From a virus: a DNA stretch of 64,000 bases. The translations under genes and the position numbers were made by a program. The notes under the pieces are model-generated. The model made no database searches and had not been told where the DNA came from. It saw nothing but the letters and a program-made list of their open reading frames with translations. The stretch lies in the IMG/VR virus record IMGVR_UViG_3300009151_009555. One strand, given 5' to 3'. Of this stretch, positions 298-43,038 are shown piece after piece (positions within the stretch are counted from its first letter, which is position 1; every line of letters begins with the position of its first letter).

Positions 298-557
298 ATT
301 TCTTTGAGTTCTTCTTCTCTGGCATACCACTGGTCGCCTTCTTCGTCTGTGAAGTAGTAGATGTAACAGCTACCCTTCATTCCGCATTTGTCAATGGTTA
401 TGACCTTACCATCCATTTCTGCCTTATCTCCTTTATAGAATAGCGGCATGCTTATCCAATCAGGGAAAAGGTCAAGTACTTGTTGTGCCTTTGCTTTGTC
501 TCCGATTATCTCTTTTAATTTTCTCTCGAATCCTGATAAGTTGTCTAGTTCTTTCAT
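294..557 (-). CDS. hypothetical protein, 87 aa
   Basis: ORF track. It ends ...EEELKEI with ATATGA coupling to the next gene. Confidence 0.45.
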   Translation of the reverse strand: MKELDNLSGFERKLKEIIGDKAKAQQVLDLFPDWISMPLFYKGDKAEMDGKVITIDKCGMKGSCYIYYFTDEEGDQWYAREEELKEI

Positions 558-618
558 AGCTGCAATATACGGATAATATTCGATTATATTCCTATTTTAT
601 CTCCTACTTTAATATCTT

Positions 619-831
619 TCATATTCCTATTTCATTAAGTTGTCGTTCTCTCCATTCTTCGAGAGTTATGAATCTAGATTCTTTATATGTGTGTTGTTTA
701 CCAAAGTCGTTTATAATTTTTATACCACCAAATTCCCGATTGACTACATCATAACTGATACCATATCTTATTCCTTCCTGTGGTCTTCCTTTCCCCATCC
801 AATAAAAAGGTTCTATACAAACTACTTTCAT
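619..831 (-). CDS. hypothetical protein with C-terminal RERQLNEIGI tag
   Basis: ORF 619..870. The start was moved to the ATG at 831, which sits 4 nt after the stop of 836..1285. Confidence 0.45.
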   Translation of the reverse strand: MKVVCIEPFYWMGKGRPQEGIRYGISYDVVNREFGGIKIINDFGKQHTYKESRFITLEEWRERQLNEIGI

Positions 832-835
832 AGTC

Positions 836-1285
836 TTATTTCTTTGTAAGTTCTGTTGAATCGAAGCCAACGTTCTCAGCCACGCCTACTTTGTTTAATA
901 CCGTGATGTAAGTGTATTTTCCTTTTTGACTTCTTACATCGTAAGTCCCTGGGTACTTCTTCGCAAACGTACCTGATTTGAATACGACCTTATCTCCTGC
1001 AACGAATACCTCTGCGATAACTGGCTTATCCCAGCCTGGTACTAACTGATCTAATAACACTGGGTTTAATAAGTCATTCATCGCCTCACCAAAACTTTTA
1101 GTCTTACCAGCTGTTTGAACGTATCTGTCTAAGGCAGTGAAGGCACCAGGCATCTTAGCTAACTGACCACTGGCTTTGGCACCACTATATGAAGTTGTGA
1201 AGTTTCCAGTAGGTAGTTTCAAAGTAATGTAGTTGTGTTGAACATTAAGTTTCGGTGCTGCTATTTTCTTTGTCTTAGTTGCCAT
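836..1285 (-). CDS. hypothetical protein, 149 aa
   Basis: ORF track. No motif recognised. Confidence 0.5.
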   Translation of the reverse strand: MATKTKKIAAPKLNVQHNYITLKLPTGNFTTSYSGAKASGQLAKMPGAFTALDRYVQTAGKTKSFGEAMNDLLNPVLLDQLVPGWDKPVIAEVFVAGDKVVFKSGTFAKKYPGTYDVRSQKGKYTYITVLNKVGVAENVGFDSTELTKK

Positions 1286-4057: not shown

Positions 4058-4519
4058 ATGAAACATTTAAAAAGATTTAATGAAAGTAAAGAAGAAGAGT
4101 TTGATGTGGAATATATCAGACATTGCTTTGTAGATATAATCGACGAATTCAATCTAAAGATAGAAGATAAAAGCTTTAAAGAATATGATATGACAGATAA
4201 AGTGCACACAGAAGTTCCTTGTCTACAGATTGTAATCGACTTACCTAGGCTTAATGGAAGAATAGCTTTTGTAGGAGAAGTAAGCGAGTTTGAAAAGCAA
4301 TATGGTTTATGTAATGCTATAGAGGACTTGGTAAAAGCGAGCTCGGATCTAGCTAAGATATTAGAGACGGTGGATGTGGCGATTAAAAGATTGTCTGACG
4401 AATTTCCAGAGTATAAGTTCACTAACAACCATATCAATGATAAGTTGAAATCAAGAGTTCTATATGCGACTAAATCAGATGGTGATAAACCAAAGATGTT
4501 TATAACTATAACGAAATGA
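4058..4519 (+). CDS. MK-N-terminal family protein (MKHLKRFNES)
   Basis: ORF track. Same first 10 residues as the protein at 5012. Confidence 0.55.
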   Translation: MKHLKRFNESKEEEFDVEYIRHCFVDIIDEFNLKIEDKSFKEYDMTDKVHTEVPCLQIVIDLPRLNGRIAFVGEVSEFEKQYGLCNAIEDLVKASSDLAKILETVDVAIKRLSDEFPEYKFTNNHINDKLKSRVLYATKSDGDKPKMFITITK

Positions 4520-5660: not shown

Positions 5661-6095
5661 TTAGTATTCAAACCTTTCGTCTAAATCAAATAGTTTGTCG
5701 AACTCTTCCTCTGGAAGATAATCAAGTTCTCCTATGACGCAGCAGACGAAGCTATGTGCTCTACCATATACTGGATAGTTATCCAGCACCTCTGATAGTA
5801 TCTTACCAATCTCTGTTATTGGTTTGACTTGTAGTCCAATCATAATCTCTTTCATGTTCATAACTTCATACGGGCCTTTGTCGTCGTAGCTGTATGTGCC
5901 GAACTTCTGTATGGCTTTATCAATCTTATTGATAAGATTGAGTGCATCGGGACTGATACTGACAGGTTGTTTCTTACTTCTAGTAATCTCGTCGATATAG
6001 TCGATTACGGACTCTGCTAATGAAGAGAACTCTTGTTGGTTCATTTTAGAGTCTGCCTCATTAAGCAGAGCGATGATTTTGTTTTCTATGTCCAT
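5661..6095 (-). CDS. hypothetical protein
   Basis: ORF 5661..6170 trimmed to the ATG at 6095 (MDIENKIIALL). The untrimmed N-terminus would read through the adjacent tRNA-like element. Confidence 0.45.
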   Translation of the reverse strand: MDIENKIIALLNEADSKMNQQEFSSLAESVIDYIDEITRSKKQPVSISPDALNLINKIDKAIQKFGTYSYDDKGPYEVMNMKEIMIGLQVKPITEIGKILSEVLDNYPVYGRAHSFVCCVIGELDYLPEEEFDKLFDLDERFEY

Positions 6096-6109
6096 AGTGT
6101 TTATTTTTG

Positions 6110-6215
6110 TTGTCAGGACAGGATTCGAACCTGTATGTTGAAAGTTCCGAATATCACACTCGCTTATCAACTATAATGCACTTCACTTTAGCGTATACCA
6201 TTCCGCCACCTGACT
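6110..6215 (-). tRNA. tRNA-like element, unusually long (about 106 nt); isotype unresolved
   Basis: The minus-strand reading has an acceptor AGTCAGG/CCTGACA (one mismatch) and a Leu/Ser-type D-arm GGCGGAATGGTATACGC. It has a T-arm ACAGG-TTCGAAT-CCTGT. About 56 nt lie between the D- and T-arms, too long for a standard class-II tRNA. Confidence 0.45.
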
Positions 6216-6235
6216 ATACAAATATAGTATTTATT

Positions 6236-6251
6236 TTTAATATATACTCAT
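6236..6251 (+). promoter_or_regulatory. class-A motif TTTAATATATACTCAT abutting the ATG at 6252
   Basis: Motif instance. Confidence 0.5.
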
Positions 6252-6881
6252 ATGAAGTACATAAAATTATTCGAAGCAAAAAAGACATATACACAGAAGT
6301 CAAAAGAACTTTATGATAAGTTTAATTCGCTTATAGACGAAGCGACCAAAATAGAAGTAGAGGATGTCATGAGATCCATTTTCGACATAACCGGATCGCC
6401 AACCAGCGAAAGTTATTATATAAGATGGAGTGTAAAGGGTACTAATAAGGCAGGCATTACATCGCCGCTTTTCCATGATGTGGATACTTATAAATTGGTC
6501 AAATACGCCTATGACAATCTTTTGCTGGGCAATCTTACTATGGATGCTTCTCTTTCCTATGATATTCAGTCGGTTAGAGATGAATTACTAGAGTTGGTAG
6601 AAGATGAAGTGGTTTATGTAAAGGAAACTTTAGAGTCTATGGGATATGAGTTTGACTACCAAAAATACGTTCCAACAACTGGTTCGCCCACCATAAGATT
6701 TCGTGTTATCAAAAAGGACGTGGATGGCTCTTCTATAATAGAAGATAGGGAATACTATTCTTCTTTGCCTAAGTCTATAATAAAGCCTTTTGGTTTATTT
6801 ATGATGCAGTACAAGGTTCCTGATGAAAAGGCCGCAGAGTTCGCCAATCTGTTGGGATCCGCTGACTGGTCCAAAGAATAA
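6252..6881 (+). CDS. MK-N-terminal family protein (MKYIKLFEA)
   Basis: ORF track. Preceded by TTTTTAATATATACTCAT directly at the ATG. Confidence 0.55.
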   Translation: MKYIKLFEAKKTYTQKSKELYDKFNSLIDEATKIEVEDVMRSIFDITGSPTSESYYIRWSVKGTNKAGITSPLFHDVDTYKLVKYAYDNLLLGNLTMDASLSYDIQSVRDELLELVEDEVVYVKETLESMGYEFDYQKYVPTTGSPTIRFRVIKKDVDGSSIIEDREYYSSLPKSIIKPFGLFMMQYKVPDEKAAEFANLLGSADWSKE

Positions 6882-42753: not shown

Positions 42754-42820
42754 GCCGGTGAACGGGTGGAAGCCAGGTCTGTAAAACCTTTGCTCGTGGG
42801 TTCGATACCCACCAACGGCA
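42754..42820 (+). tRNA. degenerate, short tRNA-like sequence (67 nt; GTA anticodon loop, Tyr-like); possible tRNA pseudogene
   Basis: Good T-arm GTGGG-TTCGATA-CCCAC. The acceptor GCCGGTG/CAACGGC has a G-A mismatch, the D-arm cannot be folded canonically, and the anticodon stem has 4 bp. Confidence 0.35.
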
Positions 42821-42910: not shown

Positions 42911-42998
42911 GCAGGTGTCGCCTAGTTGGTCGATGGCTCCGGATTTCCAATCCGGTCAGATAAGGTTCACATCGTGGGTTCGAATCCCACTACCTGCT
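42911..42998 (+). tRNA. tRNA with anticodon TCC (Gly) but a class-II-like 18-nt variable region; discriminator U
   Basis: Acceptor GCAGGTG/TACCTGC, D-arm GCCTAGTTGGTCGATGGC, anticodon arm CCGGA-TTTCCAA-TCCGG, variable region TCAGATAAGGTTCACATC, T-arm GTGGG-TTCGAAT-CCCAC. Confidence 0.65.
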
Positions 42999-43038
42999 CA
43001 AACCGAATAGAGACAAGTGCTCATTTAATATATATTAA

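Follow-up and report, generated by a model that had tools for sequence, protein, structure and literature searches.

Transfer RNA-shaped elements with a nearly constant leucine-type body and exchangeable inserts in uncultured phages

The 64,000-nucleotide (nt) stretch of viral DNA analyzed here (IMG/VR virus record IMGVR_UViG_3300009151_009555; hereafter the window) carries on its minus strand, at 6215..6110, a 106-nt element that is shaped like a transfer RNA (tRNA) but has a 56-nt insert in place of the anticodon and variable arms. It belongs to a family of which at least 189 distinct copies were collected, from about 200 contigs of uncultured viruses and metagenomes, and in which one class II, leucine (Leu)-type body is nearly unchanged while the module at tRNA positions 26–48 is wholly different between copies. 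Modules have been exchanged between phages exactly at the body/module boundaries, and the module of the window is one discrete type that is sequence-invariant in five contexts. We read the element as encoding a stable tRNA-shaped RNA that does not decode, the body of which would serve as a chassis for an exchangeable RNA module, and we give this interpretation an even chance of being correct.

On the minus strand the element has the layout AGUCAGG-UG-GCGGAAUGGUAUACGC-[56 nt]-ACAGGUUCGAAUCCUGU-CCUGACA-A, which corresponds to tRNA positions 1–73 as read from the sequence; it is followed by C74 at 6109, and no CCA is encoded. The 5′ acceptor strand (A1–G7, AGUCAGG, 6215..6209) pairs with the 3′ strand CCUGACA (6117..6111), after which stands A73 (6110). 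The original prediction, which was made from the letters of the window alone, described a perfect acceptor stem; six of the seven positions are indeed Watson-Crick pairs, while the first is an A1·A72 mismatch where relatives have A1-U72, and A72 in place of U occurs also in two other copies (L119 and L059). U8 and G9 (6208..6207, read from the sequence) lead into the class II, Leu-type D-arm GCGGAAUGGUAUACGC (6206..6191), composed of GCG-GAAUGGUAUA-CGC with a 3-base-pair (bp) stem, A14, A15, and G18G19; the U at 6195 is G, A, or U in relatives. This D-arm is identical to that of tRNA-Leu annotated in cultured phages, in agreement with its earlier description as tRNA-Leu-like, and the T-arm (ACAGG-UUCGAAU-CCUGU, 6134..6118), called perfect in the same place, has all of its stem positions paired. 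Between the two arms lies the insert, or cargo (tRNA positions 26–48, 6190..6135, UAAAGUGAAGUGCAUUAUAGUUGAUAAGCGAGUGUGAUAUUCGGAACUUUCAACAU), the last base of which is the conserved U48. The distance of 56 nt, as first estimated, is beyond the 22–40 nt that separate the D- and T-arms in any normal tRNA.

When the 106 nt are folded without constraints, the minimum-energy structure (−28.4 kcal/mol) contains the acceptor, D, and T helices, and the insert forms a 4-bp mini-hairpin and a long hairpin (predicted at 6137..6171, minus strand; GUUGA…UCAAC around CGAGUG-UGA-UAUUCG) that stops 2 nt before the T stem, at the position of a class II variable arm. An alternative, anticodon-stem-like helix can be drawn between AAAGU (6189..6185) and ACUUU (6145..6141) on the same strand (6141..6189 as a whole), and this is the pairing used by ARAGORN and Rfam. 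It encloses 39 nt, which bears out the earlier remark that no clean anticodon stem-loop is evident, and forcing it costs 2.2 kcal/mol relative to the hairpin fold.

Neither ARAGORN with default settings nor Rfam at the gathering threshold (29 bits for the tRNA family RF00005) makes a call at the element. At a permissive threshold, the Rfam tRNA model aligns positions 9–63 with 15.3 bits (E = 2.8) and replaces the anticodon loop with a 39-nt local end, a score that is not significant alone. Chance is excluded by the relatives, because at 50 of its 52 positions the window body has the base of the majority consensus built from 100 distinct relatives, because the tRNA helices form in the fold, and because a sibling with the identical insert and a consensus body (L183) scores 41.5 bits against the same model (E = 7e-6), with the loop again skipped as a local end. 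The low score of the window copy is therefore due to its two body changes and not to the insert. The copy fits the family definition, namely the body AGUCAGG-UG-GCGGAAU(U)GGUAGACGC … U48-ACAGGUUCGAAUCCUGU-CCUGACU-A73-C74 and a non-tRNA insert between positions 26 and 48.

As regards its class, the element has the acceptor stem (six pairs and A1·A72), the discriminator base, the G18G19 D-arm, and the T-arm with a UUCRANY loop of a canonical tRNA, but no 5-bp anticodon stem with a 7-nt loop carrying U33 and an anticodon, and no NAG or YAA anticodon in a 7-nt loop with which a tRNA-Leu would decode. The identity set of Escherichia coli leucyl-tRNA synthetase (LeuRS), comprising A73, A15-U48, G18G19, and U8:A14, is present in full. 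No match to the YrlA/Y RNA family (RF02553) was found at 6110..6215 with E up to 10, and the ends of the element lie in the acceptor stem; no transfer-messenger RNA (tmRNA) was found at the element by ARAGORN (-m) or Rfam, and other Rfam families gave only chance-level matches there with E up to 10 (PreQ1, HAV_CRE). A scan of the whole window with Rfam at the permissive threshold gave no second copy.

The body common to the family reads AGUCAGG-UG-GCGGAAUGGUAGACGC…ACAGGUUCGAAUCCUGU-CCUGACU-A. It was collected with two patterns of D-arm plus T-loop, which matched at least 120 viral contigs with the parts 45–70 nt apart and gave 80 further matches with the parts 15–44 nt apart, and with a fuzzy search, which brought 217 copies from 180 sources, with a maximum of four at one locus. 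The patterns left free the acceptor stem, the T-stem pairs 49–51:63–65, and positions 26, 48, 73, 74, and −1. The acceptor strands AGUCAGG/CCUGACU, U8, U48, A73, and C74 are nearly invariant in these matches though they lie outside the search pattern. At least six of the seven acceptor pairs are present in 179 of the 189 distinct copies; 128 of these 179 share the heptamer AGUCAGG, and the rest have other heptamers with compensating 3′ strands, among which all seven pairs covary. A73 is found in 154 of the 179 copies (86%) and C74 in 174 (97%), the base at −1 is T in 78%, and U48 is kept in 114 of 124 representative inserts (92%). When 100 distinct bodies were aligned, the cloverleaf helices were 98.5% paired, a percentage that is inflated by the retention of only those copies with at least six of seven acceptor pairs; compensatory changes are unaffected by this filter. 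In the alignment, 156 cells changed on both sides of a pair, compared with 23 ± 4 in column shuffles and 20–38 when partners were slid by one to three columns, and the T-stem pairs 49:65, 50:64, and 51:63 covary across the family. Many copies exceed the Rfam tRNA gathering score.

The inserts, by contrast with this body, range from 13 to 98 nt and comprise more than 100 types with sequences unrelated between copies. The 56 nt of the window recur with 100% identity in two IMG/VR contigs (L182 and L183) and four metagenome contigs (L184, L185, L186, and L187); three of these (L183, L185, and L186) represent one context, and the identical insert is thus found in five unrelated flanking contexts including the window. 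Within IMG/VR, the core of this cargo occurs only inside the body. The bodies around it differ at six or more sites (an extra D-loop U, G13A, G21U, A1G, U72A, and A73G) and the insert at none, for which a simple binomial gives an estimated probability of about 0.01 that all six changes fell in the body, were changes spread evenly.

Exchange of the module is seen most directly at one orthologous locus, where three relatives (L017, L047, and L145) carry unrelated inserts of 44, 61, and 37 nt between flanks that are about 90% or more identical as judged by eye in the alignment (not computed). The similarity breaks and resumes exactly at 26/27 and 48/49, and a further relative (L123) is an empty site, with no element between the same promoter box and leader hairpin. 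Several other insert types show compensatory stem changes (L007 versus L076; L005, L113, and L036; L028 versus L080; L025 versus L058), and these types keep their loop and linker motifs while the stems change. Across the family, the commonest layout has a linker of 10–18 nt and then a hairpin that stops 2 nt short of the T stem, and the minimum-energy fold of the window copy matches it; an anticodon-stem-like closing helix is no commoner across the family than in shuffled inserts. The 35-nt hairpin of the window (GUUGAUAAG…UUUCAAC) may resemble the ends of some clustered regularly interspaced short palindromic repeats (CRISPR), and GUUG…CAAC termini of this kind are present in only 3 of 134 cargo types and are not the commonest terminal pair.

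Many copies are located inside large phage tRNA arrays, among ordinary tRNAs and with up to four copies per locus, the inserts of which are all different; further oversized Rfam tRNA matches in these arrays proved to be this body with a variant D-loop. The arrays also contain genuine tRNA-Leu genes, whose acceptor, D, and T sequences are different. Other copies, that of the window included, stand alone in intergenic gaps. An open reading frame (ORF) of at least 50 amino acids starts within 30 nt downstream of 46 of 161 copies, and the downstream proteins are mutually unrelated, falling into 44 unrelated clusters out of 70. In cellular genomes, the body was found on only 8 small contigs of metagenome-assembled genomes (MAGs) among 185,579 species, including Sediminibacterium and Chitinophagaceae bins, and it is absent from plasmids and, as a two-halved unit, from GenBank phages. 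An origin from a host tRNA was considered and rejected, since the body and its 5′ half are essentially absent from cellular genomes beyond these 8 MAG contigs. Promoters and MAG labels point to Bacteroidota as hosts.

In the window, the element is alone in a 156-nt gap between divergent genes. A promoter-box match, TATATTTG (TAnnTTTG; 6226..6219, minus strand), ends 3 nt before element position 1, and the same TATATTTG box stands 4 nt upstream of four other family copies (L017, L045, L047, and L145). TAnnTTTG ends 3–24 nt before the ATG of 12 of the 80 ORFs in the window, compared with about 1.5 expected. We take TAnnTTTG to be the Bacteroidota/Bacteroides-type −7 promoter box, the consensus known for Bacteroides being our ground for a presumed promoter function. 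Transcription probably begins at or beside the tRNA-like 5′ end. On the other side of the element, a gene for a 144-amino-acid protein of no known family (6095..5661, minus strand) has its ATG 14 nt after A73; the same promoter box probably drives both in one transcript, and the element looks like an insertion into the short leader of this gene. The divergent gene at 6252..6881 (plus strand) is a plausible neighboring ORF. Both flanking ORFs had been reported to run into the element, and this is true of the mechanical ORFs 5661..6170 (with a TTG start) and 6107..6316, both of which we judged to be artefacts, and not of the plausible genes 6095..5661 and 6252..6881.

We propose that transcription would begin at the TATATTTG box directly upstream, with the element heading the messenger RNA (mRNA) for the 144-amino-acid ORF, and that host tRNA maturation enzymes would recognize the body, with RNase P acting if there is a 5′ leader, an RNase Z-type cut after A73, and addition of CCA. 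The RNA would be released and stabilized as a species of about 109 nt. Maturation in the style of a tRNA fits the encoded CCA (positions 74–76) that is found in 8 of 179 copies, in some of which it is followed by a conserved structured spacer. In E. coli, LeuRS depends on A73, A15-U48, G18G19, and U8:A14, whereas charging does not need the anticodon and variable arms (PMC9976931). The body keeps every one of these required elements, the replaced parts are those that LeuRS can do without, and the RNA may therefore be leucylated; leucylation is plausible because the conserved positions coincide with the E. coli identity set. The module would be the working part, displayed on the tRNA chassis and acting in trans on a partner, a role suggested by the insert of the window type being more conserved than its body and by the presence of several inserts per genome.

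More broadly, and more tentatively, the family may represent an RNA display system in phages of freshwater Bacteroidota, and probably of others, in which a fixed Leu-type chassis is matured, and possibly aminoacylated, by host enzymes, and more than 100 modules are swapped by recombination in the conserved halves to act as trans-acting effectors in phage-host or phage-phage conflict. The modules of such a system could be decoys for RNA-guided or tRNA-targeting defences, a possible example being the window hairpin with its putative likeness to CRISPR repeat ends.

Several observations weigh against the chassis interpretation. The window copy, with A1·A72, U21, and only 15.3 bits, could be a weakened copy. 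Its insert has two mutually exclusive predicted folds within 2.2 kcal/mol of each other, and a search for variants of this insert type gave identical copies only, so that covariation cannot decide between them. No complementary target was found in the 64-kb window, where the longest exact match to the insert elsewhere is 10 nt, below the shuffle average, and neither a partner protein nor a common neighboring gene was found in the family loci; no ORF family reaches beyond 19 of 181 loci, and those seen most often are structural or terminase-like. The size, ends, and CCA status given here for the RNA are predictions, and the LeuRS argument is drawn from the E. coli enzyme rather than from one of Bacteroidota, with about 12% of copies having G73. 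The conservation of the D-arm and T-loop is partly by construction, as both were fixed by the search patterns. Finally, a role as chassis and nothing else leaves the extreme conservation of one acceptor sequence unexplained; that conservation hints at a sequence-specific factor by which the body itself would be read.

This last point leads to the main rival, to which we allow a minor but appreciable chance: that the body is the working part, as an anticodon-less, Leu-accepting or CCA-ended tRNA mimic, and that the insert need only differ from an anticodon arm and keep a hairpin at the variable-arm position. Such a mimic might be a decoy or sponge for host factors reading the acceptor end or elbow of tRNAs, for example tail- or acceptor-targeting defence nucleases, nucleotidyltransferase toxins, LeuRS, or EF-Tu, or a Leu donor to a non-ribosomal transferase. 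It would account for the acceptor sequence, A73, C74, and U48, none of which the searches had fixed, being conserved most strongly, for the equality of the conserved set with the E. coli LeuRS identity set, for an insert that is free in length and sequence, and for a commonest layout that consists of a linker and a variable-arm-like hairpin; tRNA-tail-cleaving immunity exists (PMC12851939). However, the insert of the window is more conserved than the body across five contexts, several insert types retain loop motifs and 5′ segments while their stems covary, which is unexpected for a spacer, and the several copies with different inserts per genome are hard to explain if only the body matters.

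A second alternative, which we regard as unlikely, is that the family represents a dispersed repeat, selfish or passive, in the form of a mobile or recombination cassette derived from a tRNA, which spreads into intergenic regions of phages and is kept by recombination of its 26–28-nt conserved halves, and that the RNA is functionless. The filled and empty sites, the swapping of cargo at one orthologous locus, the identical element in five unrelated contexts, the unrelated downstream genes with no associated protein family found, and a terminal inverted repeat of 8 nt (UAGUCAGG…CCUGACUA), which comes with a T at −1 in 78% of copies, speak for such a cassette. Against it, compensatory covariation maintains the tRNA helices, positions of tertiary interactions such as U48 are retained, copies reside in tRNA arrays with CCA encoded in some of them, and no transposase, target-site duplication, or other signature of mobility was seen. 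Selfish spread is also compatible with a function of the RNA, and the two are not mutually exclusive.

It is improbable, in our estimate, that the element acts in cis as a 5′ leader or a signal for processing (tRNA punctuation), in which an RNase P or RNase Z cut would set the 5′ end, stability, or translation of the downstream mRNA. The location of the element between a promoter box and an ATG 14 nt after A73 is consistent with such a role, as are the ORF starts within 30 nt downstream of 46 of 161 copies and the insertion of the element into a short leader in L017 and its relatives. However, for about half of the copies no ORF begins within 200 nt, many copies are in tRNA arrays, and inserts that are sequence-invariant or covarying would be left unexplained. 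Pairing of the insert with the downstream start region is no stronger than its pairing with mismatched partners, the duplex energies in cis being equal to those in trans (p = 0.31), and a role as cis-antisense regulator of the downstream start was rejected on this result. A tRNA-derived regulatory RNA was among the options of the original prediction and is the closest of them to the non-decoding tRNA-shaped RNA that we propose; a regulatory role is conjectural, and the antisense comparison to the downstream start was negative.

An intron-containing tRNA, also among the earlier options, is very improbable. In intron mode, ARAGORN returns as its best fit a tRNA-Arg(UCG) with a 32-nt intron between positions 31 and 32, to be spliced to a 75-nt decoding tRNA; the AAAGU/ACUUU helix with an AUUCGGA loop and U33 can be drawn for it, and enigmatic introns have been described in the oversized pseudo-tRNAs of Lak megaphages (Devoto et al., bioRxiv 10.1101/356790). 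However, the relatives give no support to the call. The site is non-canonical (the usual one being 37/38), the D-arm is of Leu type and not of Arg type, the hairpin fold is more stable, and closing helices occur at chance level. Among about 200 relatives no intron-less version was found; orthologous loci, where an intact canonical tRNA would have been evidence for a degenerated gene, carry different inserts, and one is empty. The same body elsewhere would give Glu, Leu, Ser, Tyr, Asn, Ile, Pro, or four-base anticodons, which are inconsistent with one another. The insert is too short for a group I intron, no intron family was matched at the element with E up to 10, and the bulge-helix-bulge geometry of the other intron type was inspected by eye only. 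In addition, no tRNA splicing endonuclease is known from bacteria. A decayed tRNA, the remaining earlier option, is barely credible, since the A1·A72 mismatch, the missing anticodon arm, and the sub-threshold Rfam score that would suit a pseudogene are outweighed by an insert identical in the window and four other contexts, whose different flanks argue against assembly duplicates of one contig, a body at consensus in 50 of 52 positions, the element's own promoter box, and strong compensatory covariation across the family.

Some further features of the family copies and of the window are recorded here. One cargo type, starting with UAGAAGUGAAUAGAUAAG, is present in eight copies (L028, L044, L080, L208, L209, L019, L204, and L215); it has its first 10 nt or so and a GAUAAG motif in common with the window cargo, and a predicted H-type pseudoknot is possible, with AAGUGA/UCACUU interleaved with GAUAAGU/ACUUAUC, the second stem of which has one compensatory change, in L080. 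The contig L183 carries a second, 144-nt copy of the body (886..1029, minus strand), the insert of which holds a second T-arm-like hairpin, AAGGUUCAAUUCCUU; this copy recalls the tRNA within an intron described for Lak phages. Copies in L135 (721..808), L103, and L111 are near real tRNA-Leu, with giant variable arms and an anticodon-like loop in which C33 rather than U33 precedes UAG, and they may mark the ancestral state of the family.

Between CCA-encoding copies, a recurrent spacer of about 50 nt is found (L135, 463..517; flanks of L057, L046, L125, L119, L169, L180, L033, and L010). It has a long-range helix, GUUAACCAC…GUGGUGAC, and a strongly covarying hairpin with a GAAAGA loop, and its AACA end abuts the next copy. 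Its position suggests a candidate self-cleaving (theta/hepatitis delta virus-like) ribozyme for tRNA processing; it has no Rfam match, and its motif is absent from the supplements of the theta-ribozyme paper. The contig L036 has, about 80 nt downstream from its family copy, a phage-encoded tmRNA (485..847, plus strand; 97.7 bits).

In the window itself, the protein encoded downstream of the element has no relatives in IMG/VR, and the flanking proteins are without a Pfam or PHROG family. Small paralogous ORFs on the plus strand, at 4058, 4516, 5012, 6252, and about 6890, share the N-terminus MK[HRYW][LI]K.F. The sole match of the region to GenBank phages is 37 nt in a 642-kb uncultured phage (LR756502.1), at the start of the 6252 ORF and outside the element. 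In the tRNA array of the window, a tRNA-Gly(UCC) gene (42911..42999, plus strand) is 89 nt long; its anticodon stem is 6 bp and its variable region, at about 17 nt, is unusual for class I. An insert in tRNA-Gly(TCC) is noted in the Lak megaphage preprint as well (10.1101/356790). A tRNA-like sequence of 67 nt (42754..42820, plus strand) lies between two tRNAs; it scores 29.4 bits, at the Rfam threshold, gets no ARAGORN call, and its D-arm appears reduced.

If the chassis interpretation is correct, many phage tRNA calls labeled as undetermined, pseudo, or intron-containing would represent a distinct class of non-coding RNA and not decoding capacity. An invariant body with hypervariable, exchanged inserts is typical of arms-race molecules, and the family could then be an RNA-based layer of counter-defence or host takeover. 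Since the conserved part is the LeuRS identity set, it would also become testable whether cells or viruses use aminoacylated, non-decoding tRNA mimics beyond tmRNA. We place the family among the tRNA-like non-coding RNAs; if its modules turned out to be exchangeable effectors, it could be regarded as a system new in kind. The family is apparently undescribed: no description was found in the full-text literature, with the scaffold sequence included as a query, although the coverage of that search is incomplete and its result is not proof.

Among known RNAs, bacterial class II tRNA-Leu shares with the element the 7-position acceptor, A73, U8, the 3-bp D-stem, an identical D-arm, GGCGGAAU(U)GGUAGACGC, A15-U48, G18G19, the UUCGAAU T-loop, and a hairpin at the variable-arm position. 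It differs in having a 5-bp/7-nt anticodon arm and a Leu anticodon, where the element has an insert of 56 nt (13–98 nt in the family), and in its usual G1-C72, compared with A1-U72 in the family and A1·A72 in the window. YrlA and other bacterial Y RNAs (RF02553; PMC4201824) are likewise non-decoding RNAs, also found in phages, with a tRNA-like module of D-arm, T-arm, and acceptor; YrlA of Mycobacterium smegmatis is cut by RNase P and receives CCA, and its tRNA-like module was proposed to be protective (PMC4201824). However, YrlA is of another topology, in which both ends of the RNA are in the Ro-binding helix and the acceptor is closed. The Ro-binding motif GNCGAA was not seen in the window cargo by eye, no formal search for it having been made. 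The tRNA-like domain of tmRNA also combines an aminoacylatable acceptor with a T-arm and lacks an anticodon, but tmRNA is about 360 nt long, with a tag reading frame, pseudoknots, and alanine identity (G3·U70). Two further viral examples are the tRNA-microRNA genes of the gammaherpesvirus MHV68, multi-copy tRNA-like units that serve to express or process other small RNAs, whose hairpins lie downstream and not inside, and species 1 and 2 of phage T4, stable RNAs made with the tRNA cluster and with no assigned function. No sequence relationship of the family to the MHV68 or T4 RNAs is known.

The nearest published observation is that of enigmatic introns in the oversized pseudo-tRNAs of Lak megaphages and other huge phages (Devoto et al., bioRxiv 10.1101/356790). 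Like the family, these are phage tRNA-like genes too long for bacterial finders, with inserts that are perfectly conserved across cohorts and present or absent between related genomes. They were read as Phe, Gly, Thr, and Tyr tRNAs with introns, whereas the family has one fixed Leu-type body, more than 100 unrelated inserts, and no recoverable anticodon, a distinction that is drawn by description only. In its architecture, the element is also comparable to the engineered tRNA scaffold (the approach of Ponchon and Dardel; PMC3753655), in which the anticodon arm is replaced by an RNA of interest and the body provides processing and nuclease resistance. That scaffold is a laboratory construct, whereas the family would be its natural, evolving counterpart, if, as we infer, the natural body serves the same purpose, and would then offer more than 100 small, stable RNA modules, tolerated in vivo, to be mined.

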